A program made the position numbers and the translations under genes. Below are positions 138-13,302 of a stretch of DNA of 64,000 nucleotides, piece by piece. Position 1 is the stretch's first letter. Each line of letters starts with the position of its first letter. The notes beneath the pieces were generated by a model. The model worked only from the letters and a program-made list of their open reading frames with translations. It was not told the origin of the DNA and did not search any database. Source of the stretch: Spirochaetaceae bacterium (GTDB lineage: Bacteria > Spirochaetota > Spirochaetia > DSM-2461); the NCBI GenBank assembly GCA_965224705.1, contig OZ245056.1, positions 2,112,001 through 2,176,000 on the forward strand, given 5' to 3'.

Positions 138-611
138 CTAAAAAATTGGGAAATCATCTTCAAAAGATGAGTGGCTTTTTGCAGCATCTACGGATATTCC
201 AGATTTGTTTGAGCTCGTAATTAAACTCTCAAAATATATTTGATCAAATTCATCCTTTGTCCTTTTGTTGACGTTTAACTTAAGATCAAGCAGCCTATCG
301 AGGCTGTCCGGGAGATCTGAGAGCTTACTTAAATGGAGCTGGCACACGCTTAAATCTTTCTTAACATATGGGATGCTTTTTTCTGTGAAGACACTGTTTT
401 TCCATAGTAATCTTCCGGCAAATTTTGGCCCTAAAATTTTTAAGGTCCAGACAAGCATCGTATTCCCCGCTTGAGAATCTTTAAGCTCCACCCGGTCAAC
501 CATTACCTGATATTTTCCGTCCGGGACACTTTCATACTCATCCGATGCTTCCTGTGCGTTTCCATATACCTCGTTAAATTTTTCAAGATCATTTGAATAA
601 ATTGAGCTCAT
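138..611 (-). CDS. DUF669-like phage protein (putative SSB)
   Basis: YESVPDGKYQV...SQAGNTML motif, acidic C-terminal tail EDDFPIF, located downstream of the AAA_24 ATPase. Confidence 0.75.
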   Translation of the reverse strand: MSSIYSNDLEKFNEVYGNAQEASDEYESVPDGKYQVMVDRVELKDSQAGNTMLVWTLKILGPKFAGRLLWKNSVFTEKSIPYVKKDLSVCQLHLSKLSDLPDSLDRLLDLKLNVNKRTKDEFDQIYFESLITSSNKSGISVDAAKSHSSFEDDFPIF

Positions 612-1324
612 TTTTTTATTCCTTTTGCCTGGTTCTCAAAGGCCTCGATGAAATACCGGTAATTCAATGGTACGGTTTCGGGCAGTCGGCCTGTCCGATC
701 TCCGGCATCGTATAGATCGGAGGGCCGCGTCCTCATGACACGGCGGCAGACCTCTTTCTGAGTTGTTTCGTCCTGGCAATATTCCAGATCGCAATACAGC
801 ATTATGTCGACGAGCCCGGTCACCATCTGCCGTGCTTTTTCCGGTAAGGTCGGTACAATCCGGGTCTTTTTTCCTGTTCTTGTTTCTATTTCTTTTTCCT
901 GTGAATGACTGATTAAGACTATTCCATATGGTAATTGTGCGAGCTTTGTCAGTACTCTTTGAAACTCATTATTGACAAGCGCAAACCCTTTCCCATAGGA
1001 CAGATCAGACTCGTGATCAACTCCTGCTTTCTTACAGGTGTGTTCCGCACACATTTTATACGCCAGATCGATTGTATCGATAACAATGGTGGAAAATTCG
1101 TGGCTGCCTCTGGCTATTTCCGCCCCGGCATCCAGAAAATCCCCCCAGTTTCGGATAGGGACTTGATAGGCCTCGATTGAATTCAACCCGGGTTCGGTTG
1201 CCAGAAACAGGGCATTTTCCGCCCCGGCACACCAGGTTGATTTGCCAATTTTCCCCGGTCCATAGACGAGAAGGGAAAACTCTGATAAGCTTTTCTTAGG
1301 AGCTGTCTTGTTTGTTGGTAACAT
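608..1324 (-). CDS. AAA_24 / Sak4-like phage ATPase (single-strand annealing)
   Basis: Walker A YGPGKIGKST, Walker B IVIDTID, ISH motif. Lies between a nuclease and DUF669. Confidence 0.85.
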   Translation of the reverse strand: MLPTNKTAPKKSLSEFSLLVYGPGKIGKSTWCAGAENALFLATEPGLNSIEAYQVPIRNWGDFLDAGAEIARGSHEFSTIVIDTIDLAYKMCAEHTCKKAGVDHESDLSYGKGFALVNNEFQRVLTKLAQLPYGIVLISHSQEKEIETRTGKKTRIVPTLPEKARQMVTGLVDIMLYCDLEYCQDETTQKEVCRRVMRTRPSDLYDAGDRTGRLPETVPLNYRYFIEAFENQAKGIKK

Positions 1325-1333
1325 GGTACCTCC

Positions 1334-2356
1334 TTAAAATATTTCCGGGACAGACTGCGTGCTGTCTCGGAGTTCTTCATTTGGTTCAACCACCTTGTAG
1401 TGATTCTCGATGACAAGCGGATTCTCTCCGCTTCTGCAAATCTGGAAATAGGCGCATGGCCGTCCATAGTTGAAGCACTGACTGGTGTTGCGGTAGAATA
1501 TCCCCCGCCGCTTTGCGCCAAGATAGCTTTGGGACAGTTCCCAGATCTCATGCAGGAGGTCTGCGAACTGGTCGTGCGAGATGTAAAGCCTTTCACGGTG
1601 GAACATGCCGGGCTGTGCGTATTTTTCATTGAGTCGCTTCGCGAAATCTTCGTCAGTCTCCGGCATCTTGCGCTTAGCGGTGCTTTTCCCCGTCTTAGAT
1701 CTGGCAATCAGCTCGGCCCTTCTGACCTGGAACTCCTCTTCCGTTTCGCCTGCCGACTGCTTCAGCCGGGCCTTGGCCAGGATGTTATAGAGGACCCCGG
1801 AGATTTTTATCCCCATAGTCTTTTCTATATAGTGGGAATAGAGGATGATCTGGGTGTCCATCCAGAGCCGTTCCAGATAGCCCGAGTCGATGACAGAAGC
1901 CGTCTTATGTTCGAGTACCCAGTACTCACCGTCAATCCTGACAATACCGTCAACCTTGCCTGCCAGATCGAATGATCGTGAACTCGCCCCTGTTTCCGGG
2001 TTAAAGATCTTCCCCTTGAAAACCTTTTCCAGTACAGCGACCTCAAAATCTTCGACAGGGCCATAAACACGCATATATCCCTGCATCATTGCCCTGGCCA
2101 GGTGCCAGTCGGATTTCAGACTGCTGTCGATTTCTCCCGTGTCTCCCGCGCAGGCCGCACCGATATGGCGGAAAACGCGGGCCGCGGATTGCGTGCGGTG
2201 CCAGATCTTCAGACACTCGTGTATCAGCGACCCGAACCTGAGAGGATGTGCCTCTTCAAGCGGCTTCAGATTCCGCTCGTACCGCAATTCGCATGCCTTC
2301 CGGCAATCCCGAAAACTCTTCCACATGGAATAGGTTGTGACTTTCTTTTCCATCAT
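1334..2356 (-). CDS. PD-(D/E)XK nuclease (Cas4/RecB-like phage exonuclease)
   Basis: G(K)VDG...LEHKT catalytic motif, QxxxY, one N-terminal Cys plus three C-terminal Cys (Fe-S staple). Confidence 0.85.
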   Translation of the reverse strand: MMEKKVTTYSMWKSFRDCRKACELRYERNLKPLEEAHPLRFGSLIHECLKIWHRTQSAARVFRHIGAACAGDTGEIDSSLKSDWHLARAMMQGYMRVYGPVEDFEVAVLEKVFKGKIFNPETGASSRSFDLAGKVDGIVRIDGEYWVLEHKTASVIDSGYLERLWMDTQIILYSHYIEKTMGIKISGVLYNILAKARLKQSAGETEEEFQVRRAELIARSKTGKSTAKRKMPETDEDFAKRLNEKYAQPGMFHRERLYISHDQFADLLHEIWELSQSYLGAKRRGIFYRNTSQCFNYGRPCAYFQICRSGENPLVIENHYKVVEPNEELRDSTQSVPEIF

Positions 2357-2466: not shown

Positions 2467-2657
2467 TTTGTTGTTTCTGCGGCTTTATCGTTAATCCACT
2501 GCTGCAGGGCTTCTTCGTAGATGATAATGCGTCTTCCCAATCTGACGTGCGGGAGCCCATTGCTCCGTACCTGACGGAGTGTATGCGATGTGGATATCCG
2601 CAGGAGCTCGGCAACCTCTTCAACGGTGAGTGCCCGTCCGGTATGCGAATAGTTCAT
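2463..2657 (-). CDS. Excisionase-like HTH_17 DNA-binding protein
   Basis: LTVEEVAELLRIS...LPHVRLGRRIII pattern. Confidence 0.8.
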   Translation of the reverse strand: MNYSHTGRALTVEEVAELLRISTSHTLRQVRSNGLPHVRLGRRIIIYEEALQQWINDKAAETTK

Positions 2658-4585
2658 ACCGTGCCTCCTGTGTCCACCGCCGTCCAGGTGATTCCATCAG
2701 CGCTGGTCAATATGGTGCCGGAGGCACCGGTTACCACCCACAGGCCATCGGCATAGCGCACATCATTGAGGTCCTTTCTTGTCCCGCTGTCCCGCTGAGT
2801 CCAGTCAATGCCGTCGGAGCTGGTCAGAATAATGCCGCAGTAACCTACGGCCACCCACAGGTTATTGCCGTGGTACGCAAGATGGATGTGCTTTTCCGTC
2901 CCCTCGGTGTCCTGCTCCGCCCAGGTGATGCCATCGGTACTGGTCAGGATGGCGCCGTTTGTGCCGGTTACCACCCACAGGCCATTGGCGTGATGCACTT
3001 CATAGAGGGTCTCTGCTGTCCCGGTATCTCTTTGTGTCCAGTCAATGCCATTGTAGCTAGTCAGGATGATGCCGTAGTAACCCGCGATCACCCAAAGATC
3101 ATCGGCGTGGTGCACATCAATGAGGTTCTCCTTCATCCCGATTGAGCTAATGACGGCGGGATTGGCCCGCTGCGTCCAGTCAATCCCATCGGTACTGGTC
3201 AGGAGGGTACCGGAGGAACCCACAACTACCCACAGGCCATCGGCATGATGCACTTCATAGAGGTACTCCGCCGTCCCGGTGTTTTGCTCCATCCAGCTGA
3301 TGCCATCGGTGCTGGTCAATATGGTACCGGAGGTACCCACAGCCACCCACAGCCCATTGGCGTAGCGAGCATCACGGAGGTACGCTGTCGTCCCACTGGT
3401 CCGTGCCGTCCAGCTGGTGCCATCGGTGCTGGTCAAAAGGGTGCCGTAGGAACCCACAACCACCCACAGGCCATTGCCGTAGCGAGCTTCATAGAGGTAC
3501 GCCTCCGTCCCGCTGTCTCGAACCGTCCAGGTGATTCCATCAGGGCTGGTCAGGAGGGTACCGGAGTCACCCGCAACCACCCACAGCCCATTGGCGTGGC
3601 GCACTTCATAGAGGTTCTGCGCCGTCCCGCTAACCCGCACCGTCCAGCTGATACCATCATTGCTGGTCAATATAGTGCCGGAGTAACCCACAATCACCCA
3701 CAGCCCATTGGCGTGGCGCGCATCCCAAAGGGTCACCGTTGTCCCGCTGGCCCGCGCCGTCCAGCTGGTGCCATCGGTGCTGGTCAGAATAATGCCGCAG
3801 TAACCTACGGACACCCACAGGTTATTGCCGTGGTACGCAAGATGGATGTGCTTTTCCGTCCCCTCGGTGTCCTGCTCCGCCCAGGTGATGCCATCGGTAC
3901 TGGTCAGGATGGCGCCGTTTGTGCCGGTTACCACCCACAGGCCATTGGCGTGATGCACTTCATAGAGGGTCTCTGCTGTCCCGGTATCTCTTTGTGTCCA
4001 GTCAATGCCATTGTAGCTAGTCAGGATGATGCCGTAGTAACCCGCGATCACCCAAAGATCATCGGCGTGGTGCACATCAATGAGGTTCTCCTTCATCCCG
4101 ATTGAGCTAATGACGGCGGGATTGGCCCGCTGCGTCCAGTCAATCCCATCGGTACTGGTCAGGAGGGTACCGGAGGAACCCACAACTACCCACAGGCCAT
4201 CGGCATGATGCACTTCATAGAGGTACTCCGCCGTCCCGGTGTTTTGCTCCATCCAGCTGATGCCATCGGTGCTGGTCAATATGGTGCCGACACTACCCAC
4301 AGTCACCCACAGGCCATTGGCGTAGCGCACATTAGTGAAGGCCGCCGTCGTTCCGCTGTACCGTGCCGTCCAGCTGATTCCATCAGGGCTGGTCAGGAGG
4401 GTACCGGAGTAACCCACAGCCACCCACAGGCCATCGGCATAATGCACATCATAGAGGTATTCCGTCGTTCCGCTGTTCCGCTGCATCCAGCTGATGCCAT
4501 CGGTGCTGGTCAATATGGTGCCGACACCACCCAAGACCACCCACAGCCCATTGCCGTAACGGGCATTACTGAGGTTCCTTAACAT
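2654..4585 (-). CDS. Beta-propeller repeat protein (~40-aa BNR/Asp-box-like repeats)
   Basis: About 15-16 repeats of ANGLWVxVGxxGTILTSxDGIxWTxRxSGT. No signal peptide. Overlaps both neighbours. Confidence 0.8.
   Translation of the reverse strand: MLRNLSNARYGNGLWVVLGGVGTILTSTDGISWMQRNSGTTEYLYDVHYADGLWVAVGYSGTLLTSPDGISWTARYSGTTAAFTNVRYANGLWVTVGSVGTILTSTDGISWMEQNTGTAEYLYEVHHADGLWVVVGSSGTLLTSTDGIDWTQRANPAVISSIGMKENLIDVHHADDLWVIAGYYGIILTSYNGIDWTQRDTGTAETLYEVHHANGLWVVTGTNGAILTSTDGITWAEQDTEGTEKHIHLAYHGNNLWVSVGYCGIILTSTDGTSWTARASGTTVTLWDARHANGLWVIVGYSGTILTSNDGISWTVRVSGTAQNLYEVRHANGLWVVAGDSGTLLTSPDGITWTVRDSGTEAYLYEARYGNGLWVVVGSYGTLLTSTDGTSWTARTSGTTAYLRDARYANGLWVAVGTSGTILTSTDGISWMEQNTGTAEYLYEVHHADGLWVVVGSSGTLLTSTDGIDWTQRANPAVISSIGMKENLIDVHHADDLWVIAGYYGIILTSYNGIDWTQRDTGTAETLYEVHHANGLWVVTGTNGAILTSTDGITWAEQDTEGTEKHIHLAYHGNNLWVAVGYCGIILTSSDGIDWTQRDSGTRKDLNDVRYADGLWVVTGASGTILTSADGITWTAVDTGGTV
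2821..4285. repeat. Near-exact ~505-bp internal duplication (2821-3325 vs 3781-4285, 960-bp offset) on a 120-bp repeat background
   Basis: Sequence lines repeat in register; one mismatch seen (2851 vs 3811). Confidence 0.9.
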
Positions 4586-4808
4586 CGCACTCCCCCTTTT
4601 CGTAAGCCTGTTCGAGTTCCGACCAATTTGCGAATCCGATATACAGGGCGATATCCCGGCGGATTCTCGGTGATTGGCGGACGCCTGCGATCACCCGTTC
4701 AACGGTCGTCTTTCCGTAATCGCTGTTGTTGGCGAAAGATGTAATCGATTCGCCTTTTCTTGCCATGTGCTGCGCGATGTATGCCCGTAGATCTTTCTTT
4801 TTTTCCAT
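4566..4808 (-). CDS. Cro/Ner-like small HTH regulator
   Basis: 80 aa with HTH-like SITSFANNSDYGKTTVERVIAG; AGGAG RBS; first gene after the RNA motif, divergent from the repressor. Confidence 0.65.
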   Translation of the reverse strand: MEKKKDLRAYIAQHMARKGESITSFANNSDYGKTTVERVIAGVRQSPRIRRDIALYIGFANWSELEQAYEKGECDVKEPQ

Positions 4809-4820
4809 GCATTTCTCCTC

Positions 4821-5133
4821 TTAGAAAATCCCGCCTGAGGCTCAATGCCTCAGACGGGGTGGAAATTCCATTTTTAAGATGGCCACCTTTAACTTCTTTT
4901 CGCATAACTACTTCTATACCCCCGCCATTTAGGGGGTTTCAGGGCTATTCCATTTTTTTCATACCTCGGTCGCGTACCCTGACTCTCGGGACCGCATTTA
5001 CCCTGCCTCCTACTCACAACCCCTTTCCGGTACCCATACTCGTCGTACGCCCGAGTATGGCCCGGCCATCGGCGCTTTCTATCAGGCAGGGGGTTAACAG
5101 ACACCTTTAAGGCTGCCTGTTTTTCTTGCTTCT
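4821..5133 (-). ncRNA. Putative structured RNA motif, copy A
   Basis: Multiple hairpins with compensatory changes versus copies B and C. G-U pairs favour the minus strand. Ends in hairpin + ATTTTCT. Confidence 0.6.
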
Positions 5134-5655
5134 CTAATCTCCTCCTTCTTTTCCTTTAATGAACGCAACCCAGATTGTCGTGCGTGTCGTCTTATGGCCG
5201 AACAAAGGGGATTCAGGGGTCAGTTTCAGGATCTGTGACACGGGAATTTCCTTTGTGGACCATTTTAGAATTAACACACCGTATGGTTTTAAGACGCGGA
5301 AACACTCGGCAAAGCCGCGTGTCAGAACAGTGCGCCAGTTATCGCCCAGAGTGCCGTACTTCCTGGCTGTCCAGCCGTTTATTCCATTTCGGCGGTGATA
5401 ATGCGGGGGGTCAAACACAACAAGCCGGAAGGTTTCATCTGTGAACGGAAGTTCTGTGAAATCGCCAGCGATATCCGGGTCGATTAACAGTTCGCGAAAG
5501 CCGTCTTTGCTGCTCCTGTCCTTGAGGGTGCATCGCTCTCTCCGCTTATCCAGGAAGATTGCCCTTTCATCTGTTTTGTTGAACCAGAACATTCTTGATC
5601 CGCAGCAGGTATCGAGTACTGGCGGAAGAACGCTGGGCAATCTGTCCTTTTTCAT
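5134..5655 (-). CDS. Small phage-type SAM-dependent (amino) DNA methyltransferase, copy 1
   Basis: VLDTCCGSRMFW SAM motif and FDPPH catalytic motif. Confidence 0.85.
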   Translation of the reverse strand: MKKDRLPSVLPPVLDTCCGSRMFWFNKTDERAIFLDKRRERCTLKDRSSKDGFRELLIDPDIAGDFTELPFTDETFRLVVFDPPHYHRRNGINGWTARKYGTLGDNWRTVLTRGFAECFRVLKPYGVLILKWSTKEIPVSQILKLTPESPLFGHKTTRTTIWVAFIKGKEGGD

Positions 5656-5717
5656 ACTTTCCCTATCCCTTTCATGCCGATATAATAGGCATAACCTCTA
5701 TTAGAGGGCGTGTAGAT

Positions 5718-5758
5718 AATGTAACAACACAAGCATTTATTGTCAATGAGTTTGTTGT
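5718..5758 (-). promoter_or_regulatory. Leftward sigma70-type promoter (TTGACA-17-TACATT) overlapped by two inverted operator-like sites, type 1
   Basis: tgtcaa at 5741-5746. ACAACACAAGCATT (5724-5737) and AATGAGTTTGTTGT (5745-5758) are imperfect inverted copies of each other. Confidence 0.6.
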
Positions 5759-5780
5759 TATTTTTTGGAGTTTATTGGCT

Positions 5781-6461
5781 TTGAATAGTTATTTATCTAG
5801 AATAAAAAGAATTATCGAAGAAAAAAAAATTACTGAAACTGCATTTGCCAAGGCTATCGGATCACATCAAGCAACAATTAATGCAATGTTTCAGCGTGGT
5901 ACAAACCCTCGTTCAGACTTATTAGAAGCGATATCAAAGACATTTACAGTTTCAGAGAAATGGCTCTTAACCGGCGAAGGCCCCATGTACCAGGACGAGC
6001 CGGGCTTCCCAAAGCCGCAGAGCATCCAGCATCTCAACGGGCATATAACGGACAACCCTGATGAGGAGGGGGCCTTTGTGGTGCCGATGCTGGAGCAGTC
6101 TGTTTCGGCAGGGAAGGGGAGCCATCTGGAGGATGATGATAACATCGCCGGATATGTTGCCCTGCCGCCGGCCATCACGGCTCATGGAGCTGCACTGGCG
6201 GCTCTCCCTGTTCGGGGTGATTCAATGTATCCGACAATTGATAATGGTGATATGGTGGTATGCGACGGGGGCGGTTATGATGGGGAAGGTATCTACGTCC
6301 TTCGCATGGATGGGGAAGCTCTCGTAAAGCGGCTGGCTAAGCGGCCCGGCGGTGTTATGGTTATCTCAGACAACGGCAGCTACCCGGATTTCGAGGTGTC
6401 CAGGGATACTCCGCTTGATGTTATTGGAAGGATTCGGGCGGTTGTGAAGGTGGTGAAGTGA
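5781..6461 (+). CDS. CI/LexA-like repressor (HTH + peptidase S24), allele 1
   Basis: Likely TTG start after GGAG. HTH ...WLLTGEG; VSAG cleavage site; GDSM Ser; VKR Lys. Confidence 0.9.
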   Translation: MNSYLSRIKRIIEEKKITETAFAKAIGSHQATINAMFQRGTNPRSDLLEAISKTFTVSEKWLLTGEGPMYQDEPGFPKPQSIQHLNGHITDNPDEEGAFVVPMLEQSVSAGKGSHLEDDDNIAGYVALPPAITAHGAALAALPVRGDSMYPTIDNGDMVVCDGGGYDGEGIYVLRMDGEALVKRLAKRPGGVMVISDNGSYPDFEVSRDTPLDVIGRIRAVVKVVK

Positions 6462-6574
6462 TATGAAATAGAAAAGATTCTGAGGTGATGGATGAGAGAA
6501 AATAGATTGAGCTATAGAATTCTATTGCTGCAGCTCATATAAACAATGGGCAGCTAAGCTGCGAGGAAGGAGAA

Positions 6575-6832
6575 ATGGAAAAAAGAAATTCGGGAGTAGA
6601 TCAGGAAATAGTAGAAGAAATCTCAAAATGCAAAACAAGGGAAGCACTACACTCTGTCTTTGAGGTACGCGGCCTTAATGATGTTAGGGAGAAAAGACTT
6701 TATCTCAAGGCCTGCACTGGTGAGATCGCAACATATTATGAAGATGGCTCTGATGATTTGACTGATGATCAACGATACCTTGATGATGAGTTTATGTTTC
6801 TAGACGGAACCTGGAGAGCACTTTCTCAATGA
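6575..6832 (+). CDS. Hypothetical 85-aa acidic protein, copy 1
   Basis: Strong AAGGAG RBS; ATGA overlap with the next gene. Confidence 0.75.
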   Translation: MEKRNSGVDQEIVEEISKCKTREALHSVFEVRGLNDVREKRLYLKACTGEIATYYEDGSDDLTDDQRYLDDEFMFLDGTWRALSQ

Positions 6833-7398
6833 GTTATGATAAGATACGTAAATCTATCAATGAAATTATAGCTGGTAAACATAGTGGCAAAGATCTTTCA
6901 GCGGATCAGATCAAGAACTTCATTAATGCATTTAAATCACTACTCGCTCCAGCATTAAAAGATTCAATATTTGCACACTATAAACATGCCATAGAATATC
7001 TCGTTCGGGAACATGAACAAACTCAAAGACCTATTTTGTATACAGAAGGACACATCCCATCTTCTAAGAGAGCTATTGCCAAATATTTGCGAGGCGGATA
7101 TGTAATAGCGACAAGTAAGGATTTAGATGTCAGAGAAAGACGTATTCAGCTTGGCCATGAACTGGGGCACATTCTTATAAATAATATCAACAACACCATC
7201 TACAAGACTGAAAATCTTTCTGGTTTTCCTGACAATAAATCAAGAGAATTCATGGCAAGTCTTATAAGTTTGTCAATGCATATAACCCAGAGTGACTTTT
7301 ACAAAGGAGAAACGTGTAAGAAATATCAGTATGATGAAACTCAACTATCAGAGCTTGCTGAGGAAATTATAGGTCTGGCCAGATCGGTTTTGAAGTGA
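6829..7398 (+). CDS. ImmA/IrrE-like HExxH metallopeptidase, copy 1
   Basis: RERRIQLGHELGH motif and downstream E (SREFMA). Confidence 0.75.
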   Translation: MSYDKIRKSINEIIAGKHSGKDLSADQIKNFINAFKSLLAPALKDSIFAHYKHAIEYLVREHEQTQRPILYTEGHIPSSKRAIAKYLRGGYVIATSKDLDVRERRIQLGHELGHILINNINNTIYKTENLSGFPDNKSREFMASLISLSMHITQSDFYKGETCKKYQYDETQLSELAEEIIGLARSVLK

Positions 7399-7436
7399 GT
7401 AAATCAGGATTCTCGTTTCTCTCTATTGCTTACTCC

Positions 7437-7750
7437 TTAGAAAATCCCGCCTGAGACTTAAATGGCTCAGACGGGGCGGAAATTTCATTTTGAGACGGCC
7501 ATCTCTAACTCTTTGTCCTCATAACTATTTTTATACCCCCGCCATTTAGGGGGTTTCAGGGCTATTCCATTTTTTTCATACCTCGGTCGCGTACCCTGAC
7601 TCTCGGGACCGCATTTACCCTGCCTCCTACTCACAACCCCTTTCCGGTACCCATACTCGTCGTACGCCCGAGTATGGCCCGGCCATCGGCGCTTTCTATC
7701 AGGCAGGGGGTTAACAGACACCTTTAAGGCTGCCTGTTTTTCTTGCTTCT
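7437..7750 (-). ncRNA. Putative structured RNA motif, copy B (C/A hybrid)
   Basis: 7437-7592 matches copy C; 7532-7750 matches copy A. Confidence 0.6.
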
Positions 7751-8272
7751 CTAATCTCCTCCTTCTTTTCCTTTAATGAACGCAACCCAGATTGTCGTGC
7801 GTGTCGTCTTATGGCCGAACAAAGGGGATTCAGGGGTCAGTTTCAGGATCTGTGACACGGGAATTTCCTTTGTGGACCATTTTAGAATTAACACACCGTA
7901 TGGTTTTAAGACGCGGAAACACTCGGCAAAGCCGCGTGTCAGAACAGTGCGCCAGTTATCGCCCAGAGTGCCGTACTTCCTGGCTGTCCAGCCGTTTATT
8001 CCATTTCGGCGGTGATAATGCGGGGGGTCAAACACAACAAGCCGGAAGGTTTCATCTGTGAACGGAAGTTCTGTGAAATCGCCAGCGATATCCGGGTCGA
8101 TTAACAGTTCGCGAAAGCCGTCTTTGCTGCTCCTGTCCTTGAGGGTGCATCGCTCTCTCCGCTTATCCAGGAAGATTGCCCTTTCATCTGTTTTGTTGAA
8201 CCAGAACATTCTTGATCCGCAGCAGGTATCGAGTACTGGCGGAAGAACGCTGGGCAATCTGTCCTTTTTCAT
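7751..8272 (-). CDS. Phage-type DNA methyltransferase, copy 2
   Basis: Protein identical to 5134-5655. Confidence 0.85.
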   Translation of the reverse strand: MKKDRLPSVLPPVLDTCCGSRMFWFNKTDERAIFLDKRRERCTLKDRSSKDGFRELLIDPDIAGDFTELPFTDETFRLVVFDPPHYHRRNGINGWTARKYGTLGDNWRTVLTRGFAECFRVLKPYGVLILKWSTKEIPVSQILKLTPESPLFGHKTTRTTIWVAFIKGKEGGD

Positions 8273-8334
8273 ACTTTCCCTATCCCTTTCATGCCGATAT
8301 AATAGGCATAACCTCTATTAGAGGGCGTGTAATC

Positions 8335-8375
8335 AATATAAAAGCATTTGCTTTAATTGTCAACGCTTTTGCTTT
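8335..8375 (-). promoter_or_regulatory. Leftward promoter (TTGACA-17-TATATT) with two palindromic operators, type 2
   Basis: AAAGCATTTGCTTT (8341-8354) and AACGCTTTTGCTTT (8362-8375) flank tgtcaa 8358-8363. Confidence 0.65.
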
Positions 8376-8397
8376 GTTTTTTTCGGAGATCAGTTCT

Positions 8398-9078
8398 TTG
8401 AACGAATATTTATTTAGACTAAAAAAAGTTATGGACGAAAAAAATTTTTCCGAAACAGCATTTGCTCGTGCTATTGGGTCAAGCCAAGGGTCTATCAACT
8501 CCATGTTTAGGCGAGATACAGTTCCCAAAGTTGACTTTTTGAAAGATATAGCGGGCAGATTTACGGTGAACCTGAACTGGCTTTTAACCGGCGAAGGCCC
8601 TATGTATCAGGACGAGCCGGGCTTCCCAAAGCCGCAGAGCATCCAGCATCTCAACGGGCATATAACGGACAACCCTGATGAGGAGGGGGCCTTTGTGGTG
8701 CCGATGCTGGAGCAGTCTGTTTCGGCAGGGAAGGGGAGCCATCTGGAGGATGATGATAACATCGCCGGATATGTTGCCCTGCCGCCGGCCATCACGGCTC
8801 ATGGAGCTGCACTGGCGGCTCTCCCTGTTCGGGGTGATTCAATGTATCCGACAATTGATAATGGTGATATGGTGGTATGCGACGGGGGCGGTTATGATGG
8901 GGAAGGTATCTACGTCCTTCGCATGGATGGGGAAGCTCTCGTAAAGCGGCTGGCTAAGCGGCCCGGCGGTGTTATGGTTATCTCAGACAACGGCAGCTAC
9001 CCGGATTTCGAGGTGTCCAGGGATACTCCGCTTGATGTTATTGGAAGGATTCGGGCGGTTGTGAAGGTGGTGAAGTGA
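8398..9078 (+). CDS. CI/LexA-like repressor (HTH + S24), allele 2
   Basis: C-terminal part identical to allele 1; HTH divergent (SSQGSINSMFRRDTVPKVD vs SHQATINAMFQRGTNPRSD). Confidence 0.9.
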   Translation: MNEYLFRLKKVMDEKNFSETAFARAIGSSQGSINSMFRRDTVPKVDFLKDIAGRFTVNLNWLLTGEGPMYQDEPGFPKPQSIQHLNGHITDNPDEEGAFVVPMLEQSVSAGKGSHLEDDDNIAGYVALPPAITAHGAALAALPVRGDSMYPTIDNGDMVVCDGGGYDGEGIYVLRMDGEALVKRLAKRPGGVMVISDNGSYPDFEVSRDTPLDVIGRIRAVVKVVK

Positions 9079-9191
9079 TATGAAATAGAAAAGATTCTGA
9101 GGTGATGGATGAGAGAAAATAGATTGAGCTATAGAATTCTATTGCTGCAGCTCATATAAACAATGGGCAGCTAAGCTGCGAGGAAGGAGAA

Positions 9192-9449
9192 ATGGAAAAA
9201 AGAAATTCGGGAGTAGATCAGGAAATAGTAGAAGAAATCTCAAAATGCAAAACAAGGGAAGCACTACACTCTGTCTTTGAGGTACGCGGCCTTAATGATG
9301 TTAGGGAGAAAAGACTTTATCTCAAGGCCTGCACTGGTGAGATCGCAACATATTATGAAGATGGCTCTGATGATTTGACTGATGATCAACGATACCTTGA
9401 TGATGAGTTTATGTTTCTAGACGGAACCTGGAGAGCACTTTCTCAATGA
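9192..9449 (+). CDS. Hypothetical 85-aa protein, copy 2
   Basis: Identical to 6575-6832. Confidence 0.75.
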   Translation: MEKRNSGVDQEIVEEISKCKTREALHSVFEVRGLNDVREKRLYLKACTGEIATYYEDGSDDLTDDQRYLDDEFMFLDGTWRALSQ

Positions 9450-10015
9450 GTTATGATAAGATACGTAAATCTATCAATGAAATTATAGCTGGTAAACATA
9501 GTGGCAAAGATCTTTCAGCGGATCAGATCAAGAACTTCATTAATGCATTTAAATCACTACTCGCTCCAGCATTAAAAGATTCAATATTTGCACACTATAA
9601 ACATGCCATAGAATATCTCGTTCGGGAACATGAACAAACTCAAAGACCTATTTTGTATACAGAAGGACACATCCCATCTTCTAAGAGAGCTATTGCCAAA
9701 TATTTGCGAGGCGGATATGTAATAGCGACAAGTAAGGATTTAGATGTCAGAGAAAGACGTATTCAGCTTGGCCATGAACTGGGGCACATTCTTATAAATA
9801 ATATCAACAACACCATCTACAAGACTGAAAATCTTTCTGGTTTTCCTGACAATAAATCAAGAGAATTCATGGCAAGTCTTATAAGTTTGTCAATGCATAT
9901 AACCCAGAGTGACTTTTACAAAGGAGAAACGTGTAAGAAATATCAGTATGATGAAACTCAACTATCAGAGCTTGCTGAGGAAATTATAGGTCTGGCCAGA
10001 TCGGTTTTGAAGTGA
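9446..10015 (+). CDS. ImmA/IrrE-like metallopeptidase, copy 2
   Basis: Identical to 6829-7398. Confidence 0.75.
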   Translation: MSYDKIRKSINEIIAGKHSGKDLSADQIKNFINAFKSLLAPALKDSIFAHYKHAIEYLVREHEQTQRPILYTEGHIPSSKRAIAKYLRGGYVIATSKDLDVRERRIQLGHELGHILINNINNTIYKTENLSGFPDNKSREFMASLISLSMHITQSDFYKGETCKKYQYDETQLSELAEEIIGLARSVLK

Positions 10016-10053
10016 GTAAATCAGGATTCTCGTTTCTCTCTATTGCTTACTCC

Positions 10054-10365
10054 TTAGAAAATCCCGCCTGAGACTTAAATGGCTCAGACGGGGCGGAAAT
10101 TTCATTTTGAGACGGCCATCTCTAACTCTTTGTCCTCATAACTATTTTTATACCCCCGCCATTTAGGGGGTTTCAGGGCTATTCCATTTTTTTCATACCT
10201 CGGTCGCGTGCCTTGACTCTCGGGACCGCATTTACACTGTCTCCTACTCACGCCTTTCCCGGCACCCATACCCGTCGCGCGTCCGTGTATGCTCCGGTCA
10301 TCGGGCTTTCTATCAGACAGGGGTTAACAGACAGCCTTAAAGGTGTCTGTTTTTCTTGCTTCTCC
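10054..10365 (-). ncRNA. Putative structured RNA motif, copy C (diverged)
   Basis: Same stem architecture as copy A, with covarying pairs and indels. Confidence 0.6.
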
Positions 10366-10484
10366 AACTTCCTCTATGCCGATATAATGGATATAGACTA
10401 TGCTGGAAGAACATGTAAGTAAGTTAACTCAATATCGGGGATTTGTCAACCCGGTTCTTTATTTTTTTTCGGGAATCAATCCCT

Positions 10485-10693
10485 TTGAGCGAATATGTAT
10501 TTAGATTAAAACAAATTATAAACGGAAAATCAGTGGGCAACATCCGCATGGGTAGGGAAGCTTTCATAAAGCGGCCTGACGAAGTCATAGTATTTTCGAT
10601 AATATCAGGTATCCGACCGACGAAGTATCCAAGGAAGTCCCTCTTGATGTCGTTGGCCGGGTCAGGGCGGTTGTGAAGGTGATGAAGGGGTAA
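10485..10693 (+). pseudogene. Internally deleted third repressor
   Basis: N-terminus LSEYVFRLKQII joined to S24 C-terminal remnants (RMGREAFIKR; after a frameshift, PLDVVGRVRAVVKVMK). Confidence 0.8.
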
Positions 10694-10769
10694 AAGTAAA
10701 AGTGATTAAGAATTTTGTTCATTCGATGAGCTATAATGAGTTGCATAAATCTATCAAAGAGGAAGAATT

Positions 10770-11213
10770 ATGAATACTATTGGTATCGGTAAAGTTGTAG
10801 TGGATAATACCAAACCTGGTTGGAATTATCCCCATTTTCATGTAATTCTTTTCAAGGAGAACGGAGATAACTCTTTTTACGCATATTGTATGGAACTCGG
10901 CATTGATGCTTTTTCGGAAGACTCTGCAAAAGCAGCCTTTTCTGAAATTGCGGCCAATGTATTAGATGACATCAACCAGTATGCCAATGAAGATTCTCTC
11001 TTCAAATGTCTCCTGGATATCGCCCGGAGTGATCATAATGATGTTTTCTGGAAAGAGTATCGGATTGCAGAAACAGAGCTTGCACAATATGGCGAAGACC
11101 TTGGAATTCATTTTGAAAGGAACGGCAGGGCAGCCGTGACTAATCAGGGTTTCCTAAGTATTAAACCAACTCCTCCGCCAATTGAGCAACAGCATGACGC
11201 TGCTCATCAGTGA
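10770..11213 (+). CDS. Hypothetical protein, HicB-like N-terminal fold
   Basis: VILFKENGDNSFYAYCMELGIDAFS pattern; own TATAAT and GAGG RBS. Confidence 0.5.
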   Translation: MNTIGIGKVVVDNTKPGWNYPHFHVILFKENGDNSFYAYCMELGIDAFSEDSAKAAFSEIAANVLDDINQYANEDSLFKCLLDIARSDHNDVFWKEYRIAETELAQYGEDLGIHFERNGRAAVTNQGFLSIKPTPPPIEQQHDAAHQ

Positions 11214-12393
11214 TCGCTGTATAATGCTCTGTCATATCCACTGACGAATGCCCTGTGAGTCTACGCAGCGCGTGATCAGCCACTCGGCCTCTCAGCATTG
11301 AATTATACCAATGCCGCCAGGCGTGAAAAGAAAGTCCTCGTTTTTTTATTTCATCAGGGGCTATGCCGACTGTTTCAAGCATGTGTTTATAGGTATTCGA
11401 GATACTGCGTTTCCCAATTGGCTTGTCAGGCGACGAACCCCAGAAGACGAAGTCTCCCCGCCATGGATTCACTGAGGCCAGCTGGTGTAAGGCTTCAACC
11501 GTTCTCGACGGAACGGGGACAATTCTGGGCTTGTTCCCCTTGGGAAGTTTCAGGCCCTCCCCATCCTGCCAGTTGCGCTTTACATCTATCCAGTCATCAT
11601 GAACACAATCAACTTTCAATCCTCGGCATTCGCCGAGTCTCATTCCTGTTGTCGCGGCCAGGAGGTTTATCGCCTTCTGCCGGGGATCGGTCCATTCCTG
11701 CCCAAAAAATGCACGGACTTCCTCCGGGCGAAGTATCACCCTCTCCCGTCTAGTTACGGGAAGCCGTTTAATTCTCTTGGCGGGATTAACCGATATCAGC
11801 CCCAGCCTCTCCGCCTCATTTAAGGGTACAGTCACTGCCTGCATAATCGCGTTGACACGTCTGTTGGAGATCCCCAGGGTTGAGAGCCAATGGATTATTT
11901 CTTCCATTAGCATAGCGTTTACTTTCCGCAGCCGCAGCGATTCCAACTTCCTAGAACCAAGCCAGTCTACCACTTTGTGAACAGCGCTCCTATTTGCTTT
12001 TATATAGACAGCCGACATCGGCCGTCCCATGGAATGCCTGTTTTTGAGATGGTGCCCATCATCTGACCAGAAGCCGATAAGGTAATTGGAGAAAAGAGGA
12101 TTTTCATTTCCGGTATTGATTCCAAAGCGCTTATACCATTGTGCTGCAATGGCATCGGCTCCCGCCTTGCTTGCCGGCGAGAGATGCTCCGCGTCACGGC
12201 CCAGCTCATTGCGCATTGACCCCGCAGATCGCCAGCAGGAATAATCCTGTTTGGCCGCATCCCAGAAAGCCGCGTAATAGTTTTTGAAGCCCTTCCGCCT
12301 GTACAGTATAAAAGCTTTACGCATCATGAGAACTATAAGCTTGATAGAAAAGCTAGTCAATAAACTAGTCAATATGAAAGCCATAGATTTCAT
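11161..12393 (-). CDS. int: Tyrosine recombinase / phage integrase (start may be 12327)
   Basis: TGMRLGE, FHAWRH, LTGH and TEHY catalytic motifs intact. Confidence 0.92.
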   Translation of the reverse strand: MKSMAFILTSLLTSFSIKLIVLMMRKAFILYRRKGFKNYYAAFWDAAKQDYSCWRSAGSMRNELGRDAEHLSPASKAGADAIAAQWYKRFGINTGNENPLFSNYLIGFWSDDGHHLKNRHSMGRPMSAVYIKANRSAVHKVVDWLGSRKLESLRLRKVNAMLMEEIIHWLSTLGISNRRVNAIMQAVTVPLNEAERLGLISVNPAKRIKRLPVTRRERVILRPEEVRAFFGQEWTDPRQKAINLLAATTGMRLGECRGLKVDCVHDDWIDVKRNWQDGEGLKLPKGNKPRIVPVPSRTVEALHQLASVNPWRGDFVFWGSSPDKPIGKRSISNTYKHMLETVGIAPDEIKKRGLSFHAWRHWYNSMLRGRVADHALRRLTGHSSVDMTEHYTAITDEQRHAVAQLAEELV

Positions 12394-12442
12394 TGTGGTG
12401 TGTAGTTGTGATTAATTTCTTATTCCACAATGGGTTAAGGTA

Positions 12443-12526
12443 TGCCTGGAAGAGGACTCGAACCTCCACGAGCTTGCGCTCACTAGTCCCTGAAACTAGC
12501 GTGTCTACCAATTTCACCATCCAGGC
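12443..12526 (-). tRNA. tRNA-Leu(CAG)
   Basis: GCCTGGA acceptor stem, CTAGT-TTCAGGG-ACTAG anticodon arm, long variable arm, GTTCGAG T-loop. Confidence 0.95.
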
Positions 12527-12778
12527 AGGATGTGTATAGGCGAGAGTACCTTCTAGGTGGATGTATGTCAATTACTGCACAGGGTTTTCATGCAATCTTC
12601 TTTGTGATGGATTTCTGATCCCTCCCTGCTTATTCGTACTTTTAGGATTTCTCCATCCTTTTCCTCCCCCACCCACACATTCTGACAGGAGCCTGTAAAA
12701 TAACGGATACTCAATTTCTACCGGATCAGATGTCAGCTTTCAGATTCCGGTGCATTTTCTTGTGACCGCTATTCTAAG

Positions 12779-13064
12779 GAGTCTGTCGGACTTCCGCCTC
12801 ATGGCTCGATTTTTGCCCTTCTCTCCAGAAGCAAGCCTCCTGCTTGCTTCTGGAGAGCCGCCTTCGTTCGTTTTCGCCGCCATCCGTGGCGGCTTTTCCT
12901 CGCTATCGCTCGGCACTCTCTCAGGATGCGAGTCCATAGACTCGCATCCCCTGTTGCTGCGTTGCCAAAATACTCACGTAGCCCAGCTACGCTCCGTTTT
13001 TGTCGCCTTGCATCAGGAAAAAATCATCAAAAATCGCCTCGAAGCCTTAAAGTCCGACAGACTC
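12779..13064. mobile_element. MITE family 1, long copy (286 bp) with internal hairpin insert
   Basis: TIR GAGTCTGTCGGACTT / AAGTCCGACAGACTC flanked by a CTAAG direct repeat. Confidence 0.85.
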
Positions 13065-13302
13065 CTAAGGAGGCAGGGATCAGCATTGCTTTCTCTGCTG
13101 ACCTTTTCTTGCTCGAATCACAAATTCTTCCTTCATGTCCAGAGTATTTTCTCCTGCCATGTCACCGCAATCACCTCCACAGTGTTACCGTGTTCGGAAC
13201 CAGGACGAAGGTTTCAGAGGCATATTCCCGGGTTTCTAAAAGATGAGTAGTTGGCTGTTGAAAAGTATATTGATAGAATAAGGTTGAATCAAAGGAGAAA
13301 AA

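Follow-up and report, generated by a model that had tools for sequence, protein, structure and literature searches.

Second, acquired repressors are known from mycobacteriophages: gp44 of LRRHood was proposed to give heterotypic immunity (PMC3029335), and deleting Mcgavigan's Bxb1-like repressor removed heterotypic immunity with lysogeny left intact (PMC12700041). In Vibrio cholerae, the CTX/pre-CTX/RS1 arrays described in PMC11509585 place tandem units with different rstR alleles, and type-specific repression, on one chromosome. Here we analyze a window of 64,000 nucleotides (the whole stretch of DNA under study, to which coordinates refer) from a Spirochaetaceae bacterium (contig OZ245056.1 of GenBank assembly GCA_965224705.1, positions 2,112,001 to 2,176,000), in which three stacked units form the immunity end of a tailed phage of this spirochaete. 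A first-pass annotation had seen in them an expandable repertoire of repressor alleles, collected by recombination at a structured motif. With moderate confidence, we interpret them rather as "immunity theft" within one phage family, by which the prophage would have come to hold a two-type immunity, with displaced cassettes later decaying.

Sequence comparison confirms the three-unit layout and its 2617-bp period, which stems from a tandem duplication of the immunity region into units 1 and 2 (Table 1). These two are identical over 4915-5714 (800 bp) and 5991-7592 (1602 bp), and differ at 96 positions in the 276 bp between (5715-5990; 65% identity). The claim that they are identical outside this operator and helix-turn-helix (HTH) block is true of the 800 and 1602 bp; it does not extend to the left ~95 bp of motif copy 1, which also differ from copy 2. 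Unit 3 was correctly described as having a third operator type, a deleted repressor, different cargo and no methyltransferase: its promoter spacer is 7 bp as against 17 in units 1 and 2, and its repressor remnant is 209 nucleotides (nt) as against 681, with the two ends in different frames. The gene order also agrees with the earlier statement that unit 1 alone, which adjoins the cro/ner-like gene, is placed to control the early operon. In the 3.0-Mb genome the motif occurs three times, always in this stack.

The repressors of units 1 and 2 (A and B) both possess the domains PF01381 and PF00717, as expected of lambdoid CI-type proteins, and carry Ala-Gly, Ser148 and Lys183, which we take to be the catalytic/self-cleavage positions. 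They differ at 29 residues, all within the first 60, and their codon differences comprise 15 synonymous and 29 non-synonymous ones. The N-terminal domain of repressor A gives a weak gap-free alignment to P22 c2 (E 0.03), and in the helix aligned to SNVAISQWERS of P22 c2, presumably the recognition helix, 5 of 12 residues differ between A and B. The leftward promoters read TTGACA-17-TACATT in A and TTGACA-17-TATATT in B, and around the -35 element of each lie two 14-bp sites, which their position and symmetry suggest to be operators: ACAACACAAGCATT and AATGAGTTTGTTGT in A, AAAGCATTTGCTTT and AACGCTTTTGCTTT in B, with the site at 8341-8354 forming a perfect 6-2-6 palindrome. Candidate sites of the same type differ at 2 of 12 arm positions and those of different types at 3-5 of 12, and the same operator layout is found in L120, a Mu-like spirochaete prophage. 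With 29 of 60 N-terminal residues and 3-5 of 12 operator positions distinguishing them, A and B are a heteroimmune-looking pair, and we propose that repressor specificity in this family changes by a swap of the 276-bp operator and HTH block. Matches to operator A with two mismatches number three in the 20 kb left of the window, which is chance level, and no distant operator is claimed. The perfect palindrome CCTCTATTAGAGG downstream of the leftward promoters is a candidate site for the ner-like protein. A further element, ATGCCGATATAAT, is kept in all three units (5674-5686, 8291-8303 and 10376-10388), about 100 bp before the repressor start; it is a possible -10 element of a repressor promoter facing the early promoter, with no -35 element found there.

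How the second repressor arrived is suggested by the motif itself, which we read as the early leader of the phage, probably an attenuator, carried along by any copy of the immunity region. Copy M2 changes from M3-like to M1-like inside the 61-bp identity, and by this pattern it is the trace of an unequal homologous crossover. Because 15 synonymous codon differences lie in the variable block and none in 2.4 kb of flanks, one of the blocks must come from another lineage. A 65%-identical block between 100%-identical flanks bears out the acquisition of a second repressor from another phage lineage, as the notion of immunity theft implies. Hypermutation and a retroelement, also considered as sources of the block, are ruled out by its sharp edges and many synonymous changes. 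Heteroimmune-looking relative lineages exist: six repressors of the family share merely 22-39 of their first 60 residues, and P0003, encoded on a 42.6-kb contig, agrees in the linker and the beginning of the S24 domain and has an HTH of a third type. That contig also encodes a 90%-cluster mate of the AAA_24 protein of the prophage, and the sole repressor found on it is split into P0003 and P0139. The proposal that alleles were gathered from heteroimmune relatives at the motif accordingly gains a foreign donor block, a join inside the motif and a third HTH type; the join, in the 61-bp core of M2, is nonetheless one of ordinary homology, with no dedicated site. Five of the closest repressor relatives (P0003, P0005, P0008, P0011 and P0137) are called truncated, with the HTH lost or the C-terminus split, for which real decay and long-read indels cannot be told apart.

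As to the leader as an RNA, the annotation of the motif as structured fits copy 1 (z -4.9) and not copy 3 (z -0.6), and M3 may be decaying. In a comparison of two alleles only, 67 of 87 predicted pairs are the same in M1 and M3, 6 are one-sided, 1 is compensatory, 11 are broken and 2 gapped; substitutions affect paired and unpaired columns at similar rates (22 of 172 and 22 of 149), and the outer 10-bp stem of the terminator-like hairpin is unchanged in M3. M1 and M3 show no conservation of the small open reading frames within the motif. An Rfam search of 4500-13300 at E<=5 recovered no known RNA family, c4 and P4 CI RNA included, its sole match being a below-threshold snoRNA on M2/M3. In the collections searched for the motif, there was no homolog beyond two short chance-level matches in 37 other genomes of the family, no blastn match in 50,697 phage records and no exact 20-mer match in IMG/VR. 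The hairpin pattern recurs at three IMG/VR loci, none of which resembles this region in its phage proteins or contains the motif. Within the first leader hairpin, the interior of M3 (10326-10351) is inverted relative to that of M1 (5096-5121), over 26 nt with 96% complementarity, the outcome expected of template switching at a hairpin in DNA.

These features suggest the following sequence of events. Each cassette would consist of a leftward early promoter with two 14-bp operators, a CI-like repressor and cargo read rightward, and a hairpin-ended leader read leftward. An unequal crossover between an A-type and a B-type sibling would have joined, within the 61 identical bases, one sibling's old leader M3 to the live leader M1 of the second, presumably through host RecA or the annealing module of the phage itself. 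Such a crossover would leave cassette A before cro, where it would run the switch, and cassette B behind it. The displaced cassette B would be harmless, because its leftward promoter would read only the methyltransferase before meeting the hairpin. Its repressor gene is intact, and repressor B would then silence incoming B-type phages. Production of both repressors is accordingly expected in the lysogen, with resistance to superinfection by A-type and B-type phages alike. Repressors with an S24 domain are cleaved on induction, and as A and B share this domain, DNA damage should still induce the prophage. It is also conceivable that mixed A/B dimers, formed through the common dimerization domain, could read hybrid operators. 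The leader would matter twice, as the source of homology for the join and as the hairpin that should insulate the displaced cassette. Displaced cassettes would be temporary, unit 3 being an older one that lost promoter and repressor. Unit 3 resembles the integrase end of an older relative: in genome G001 a homolog of cargo B adjoins an integrase remnant, and in G003 one of cargo A adjoins a cI fragment. Among 40 relatives searched at the DNA level, the only match was to the cargo A pair, in G003.

A relative suggests that such stacks may recur. Its contigs, ~90-94% identical and at depth 13-23 in sequencing runs X1, X3 and X4, contain joints of three kinds. One leads from a cI 3' end through the motif to another cI (10687 to 5028, 5085 to 6219; in X1 a contig of 2234 bp). 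A second connects a point shortly past a cI end with cargo A (10723 to 6586), and a third, in a contig of 3745 bp, passes from cargo B across ~3 kb to another cI end and the integrase. Five substitutions in X3/X4 match P0137, a repressor encoded on a 2.81-Mb contig, whose 5' end is out of frame and in which two alignment-invariant columns are changed. This suggests that a co-resident chromosome bears a second, decayed stack with three or more cI ends, as seen through partial alignments with unread sequence between them. The search for stacks in relatives thus yielded related cI-motif-cI joints, in partial alignments only and with a copy that looks broken.

The strongest objection to a doubled immunity region is that two single-unit haplotypes might have been joined by the assembler through the 61-bp repeat, and M2 is indeed a chimera of the sort a mis-join gives. 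We compared contigs, all built from 31-mers, from four of six available runs (X1, X3, X4 and X5); such contigs cannot span the 61-bp core with context, and no listed piece covers the whole stretch. X3 and X4 are one sample, the apparent source, holding 0.96 of the words. Contig depth is a rough measure, to be taken with caution as copy number, and ratios among exact-match contigs of one genome were used. In X3, single-copy contigs stand at 7.0, 6.7, 9.45 and 9.69, block A at 7.9, block B at 7.9 (bin mean) and shared parts at 15.1-15.3; in X4 the single-copy values are 9.1, 10.5, 9.72 and 10.9, with block A at 9.4 (bin mean), block B at 10.5 and shared parts at 18.8-21.2. The ratio of shared to single-copy depth is accordingly 1.86 (X3) and 2.01 (X4), and that of A plus B to single-copy depth 1.92 and 1.98. 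Joined haplotypes would give a ratio of 1, with shared parts at 1x and blocks summing to 1x. The anticipated depth of about 1x for each unit-specific block is thus what the data give, with shared parts at 1.9-2.0x, and concatenated alleles of two strains, named in advance as the finding that would overturn the array, do not account for ratios of 1.86-2.01. In X5, a second sample, only 5564-5714, 5991-6983 and 6983-7592 are present, at depth 2 and without differences, and their edges coincide with those of the duplication. With one molecule running from 5564 across both units, 5564-5714 and 5991-7592 should each occur two times, along with a query-word share of 0.30 (0.29 reported); of these edges, the start at 5564 was read from the data, and the three inner ones follow from the prediction. 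For a break at 7592, the core must be followed by two different continuations. These pieces would represent one long read, which may be carry-over from the first sample. Run X1, a mollusc metagenome from another study, holds two exact depth-2 pieces from shared parts, and the window itself lies in one 3,005,944-bp contig without N. The duplication is genuine, and we give the assembly artefact scarcely any credence.

A real duplication might still be an accident. Cassette B could be silent or redundant, a young copy heading for the fate of unit 3, and the loss of promoter and repressor there, the lesions of P0137 noted above, and relics of the same modules in G001 and G003 all accord with neutral debris; tandem duplication may even be common here, as a neighboring gene has an internal 960-bp duplication. 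Yet the operator/HTH pairs of the two copies are different, intact and self-consistent, an average of about two copies persists in the sample in spite of 2.4 kb of perfect repeat, and a relative present in two studies also appears to have stacked cI ends, which leaves this explanation unlikely, if the most serious of the competitors. A less probable proposal treats the stack as a reservoir, whose collapse would let a single lysogen yield phages with either of two immunity types. The geometry permits both products, a crossover in the 800-bp left repeat removing A and placing B before cro, and one in the 1602-bp right repeat removing B; neither cro nor the palindrome at 5695-5707 is part of the swapped block, so that B should fit, and the early operon supplies a recombination module. 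In P2-type switches, too, the two repressors use different operators (PMC1904263). On the other hand, depth reveals no sizeable collapsed or excess fraction and is not higher in the prophage than in the host flank, an uncollapsed phage would carry both cassettes anyway, and no site-specific mechanism was found.

The motif was presented in the first-pass annotation as a delimiter at which the element recombines, and it does bound every unit, folds strongly in copy 1 and contains the unit 2 join. A dedicated, attC-like site at which the integrase adds cassettes nevertheless finds little in its favor: the attC core sites RYYYAAC/GTTRRRY are absent from both strands of M1, M2 and M3, the integrase of the window scores 30.2 bits on the integron integrase model TIGR02249 (cut-off 265) and has its own 57-bp attachment (att) repeat, and the join falls in the longest stretch of perfect identity, where homology by itself would place it. 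For the relative, the cI 3' ends suggest joins at different homologous places. We hold this version to be very improbable, the motif being the early leader and not a purpose-built site. A maintained, motif-driven repertoire is not yet supported either: the join is ordinary, the oldest unit has lost its promoter and repressor, and P0137 of the relative looks broken, which weakens the idea of an expandable array.

Several observations also weigh against theft between siblings with lasting two-type immunity. The decay of unit 3 and of P0137 tells on any long-term benefit. A crossover of A and B siblings cannot be told apart from duplication followed by block replacement, as both yield the same sequence. 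Operators A1 and B2 differ by merely 3 mismatches, and partial cross-repression between A and B is possible, such cross-talk between immunity types being known as mesoimmunity (PMC6550527). No consensus plus-strand promoter was called for cI-A or cI-B. Among 264 loci of distant repressor relatives (101 with at least 3 kb on both sides) none holds two S24-bearing copies, and with regard to generality, no other adjacent repressor pair stands among the matches listed in 400 genomes of the class. In P2-like prophages of E. coli, 7 loci (taken from 25 listed rows out of 1422 records, a sample not directed at any particular clade) each have a single C gene. A more ambitious variant, which we put forward only tentatively and think rather doubtful, is a rolling memory, in which each superinfection by a heteroimmune sibling can add a whole, insulated cassette to the rear of the active one, the newest being expressed and protective, any of them promotable to the lytic switch by one crossover and the old ones decaying at the integrase end; if so, one prophage would combine multiple immunity with the release of progeny that differ in immunity type.

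If our preferred reading of theft between siblings is right, a change of immunity type has been caught in the act, with one prophage bearing the same C-terminal domain under different DNA-reading heads, each beside its own operators. The 276-bp block offers a natural swap for testing the origin of immunity groups and the gain of hoarding repressors. Should stacks recur across unrelated phage families, the single-repressor view of immunity would be incomplete, and annotation of one type per prophage would mispredict the phages resisted.

The element that carries the stack is bounded by a 57-bp direct repeat with copies 40.6 kb apart, and encodes, by Pfam and PHROGs matches, terminase, portal, head, connector and tail proteins, a primase, a recombination module and a tyrosine integrase, with a tape measure among the PHROGs matches. 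With att repeat, integrase, terminase, portal, capsid and tail all found, it reads as a complete, apparently intact temperate tailed prophage. We take the AAA_24 protein of its early operon to be Sak4-like. DUF669 has been described as a single-stranded DNA-binding protein adjoining the annealing protein Sak4 (PMC5928155).

The cro-like protein matches TIGR04111 (BcepMu gp16 family) at E 3e-5, below its cut-off. A 78% relative sits on a 43.5-kb contig, and there was no homolog in 400 other genomes of the phylum and one weak match in IMG/VR. Behind M3, at 10021-10052 on the minus strand, lie a ribosome-binding site and what may be the opening codons of a cro gene since lost, with ATA in place of its start codon; their fusion with the cargo A end is a possible deletion scar. 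Directly after cro (2654-4585, minus strand) comes the gene of a 643-amino-acid (aa) repeat protein, whose DNA is 68-81% identical to the repeat region of the 1753-aa tail gene of the prophage, and whose internal 960-bp duplication includes a 474-bp identical run; a role as receptor decoy, or as a reservoir for recombination at the tail tip, is conceivable. Just outside the prophage, at 12770-12950, is a high-copy repeat resembling repetitive extragenic palindromes or miniature inverted-repeat transposable elements (REP/MITE), with contig depth above 6000 and 20-nt inverted arms at 12774-12793 and 13050-13069.

The methyltransferase gene is an insertion in the leader relative to unit 3. The first cargo A gene has no match in Pfam, PHROGs, PADLOC, NCBIfam or the ESM Atlas, and its 72% homolog adjoins the cI fragment in G003. 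The second has 12 relatives at E<=0.001 and resembles the ImmA/IrrE anti-repressors of the M78 peptidase class (PMC12637031). Cargo B obtained nothing usable from Pfam, PHROGs, NCBIfam, PADLOC or the Atlas (best 0.89) and no Foldseek match at E<=0.001, with a weak query model (pLDDT 58); its motif looks HicB-like, a resemblance that none of these family and fold searches bore out. At L295 (G001:C1:2988000-3007999) its homolog lies beside the 3' remnant of an integrase, fragments of which recur three times with a tandemly duplicated large gene. At L296 (G145:C1:122000-141999) another lies inside a long tandem array of ~240-aa paralogous genes with repeated intergenic units between them.

Table 1. 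Features of the immunity end and its surroundings, in window coordinates
Feature	Position	Strand	Remarks
Early recombination module: PD-(D/E)XK nuclease, AAA_24 ATPase, DUF669	138..2356	-	Pfam; part of early operon
cro/ner-like lytic regulator, 80 aa	4566..4808	-	first gene of early operon; phrog_925 HTH E 4e-5
Motif copy M1, structured leader	4820..5140	-	between leftward promoter and cro; minimum free energy -121.4 kcal/mol, z -4.94, 0/100 shuffles as good
Terminator-like hairpin ending leader	4830..4858	-	just before cro ribosome-binding site; 12 pairs and T-rich tail
61-bp core	4915..4975	.	identical in M1, M2 (7532-7592) and M3 (10149-10209); longest M1-M3 identical run
Orphan DNA methyltransferase copy 1, 173 aa	5134..5655	-	phrog_954 E 8e-64; PADLOC MTase_II E 4e-57
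Perfect palindrome CCTCTATTAGAGG	5695..5707	.	just downstream of leftward promoter; same in unit 2 at 8312-8324
Variable block A	5715..5990	.	leftward promoter TTGACA 5741-5746, TACATT 5718-5723; candidate operators 5724-5737, 5745-5758; HTH coding part
CI-like repressor A (P0001), 226 aa from TTG, intact	5781..6461	+	HTH_3 and Peptidase_S24 (Pfam); phrog_4 E 8e-49
Cargo A gene 1, 85 aa	6575..6832	+	no family; repeated at 9192-9449
Cargo A gene 2, 189 aa, IrrE/ImmA-like HExxH metallopeptidase	6829..7398	+	copy 2 at 9446-10015; PF06114 E 3e-5, phrog_87
Motif copy M2	7436..7757	-	chimera: M3 left part and M1 right part
DNA methyltransferase copy 2	7751..8272	-	identical to copy 1
Variable block B	8332..8607	.	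leftward promoter TTGACA 8358-8363, TATATT 8335-8340; candidate operators 8341-8354, 8362-8375; HTH coding part
CI-like repressor B (P0002), 226 aa, intact	8398..9078	+	linker and S24 domain identical to repressor A
Motif copy M3	10053..10372	-	86% identical to M1; folds no better than shuffles, z -0.6
Unit-3 promoter remnant with third operator-like sequence	10431..10460	.	4-5 mismatches of 12 to A and B sites
Repressor remnant C, frameshifted	10485..10693	+	~15 N-terminal codons and C-terminal end; ~470 nt missing
Cargo B, 147 aa	10770..11213	+	no family; homolog beside integrase remnant in G001
Tyrosine integrase, 410 aa	11161..12393	-	PF00589 E 2e-18
att repeat, 57 bp	12442..12498	.	3' part of tRNA-Leu(CAG) (12442-12527); second copy 40.6 kb left, outside window

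Among described switches, that of the lambdoid CI repressors (P22 c2, 434) is alike in its HTH and S24 domains and in 14-bp palindromic operators at the early promoter, and in imm434-type swaps specificity is changed by the HTH block. Here, by contrast, two candidate operators flank the -35 element, the ner/BcepMu-gp16-like lytic regulator lies outside the swapped block, and a methyltransferase and 320-nt leader stand between promoter and cro. The closest repressors with known context, 38-53% identical in the best segment, belong to the c/ner switches of Mu-like spirochaete prophages (L118-L120, L199-L204), of which L120 shares TTGTCAA flanked by an inverted pair, with a ner-like gene opposite; these prophages read as transposable and possess one repressor each, without a stack or any match to the leader. 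P4 CI RNA and P1/P7 c4 are folded antisense leaders with a terminator ahead of early genes, a likeness that serves as a lead only, as the leader described here has neither an Rfam match nor covariation support between M1 and M3.

A literature search, incomplete for subscription papers, turned up no account of immunity cassettes arrayed in tandem within a single tailed prophage. CTX arrays consist of whole filamentous prophages or satellites added serially, whereas one 40.6-kb tailed prophage, with one integrase and one att pair, here repeats only its 2617-bp immunity cassette. The mycobacteriophage cases share with it a second repressor that does not run the switch of the phage itself. Their repressor comes from a distant cluster, LRRHood lacking binding sites for it, whereas here the whole cassette of a near-identical sibling appears to be stacked in tandem; with its promoter, operators, leader, methyltransferase and cargo, it could, unlike theirs, replace the active one by one crossover. 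Acquired second repressors and mixed-rstR CTX arrays were thus already known, and what differs here is the stacking of what appear to be whole sibling cassettes in one tailed prophage, one crossover away from exchange.

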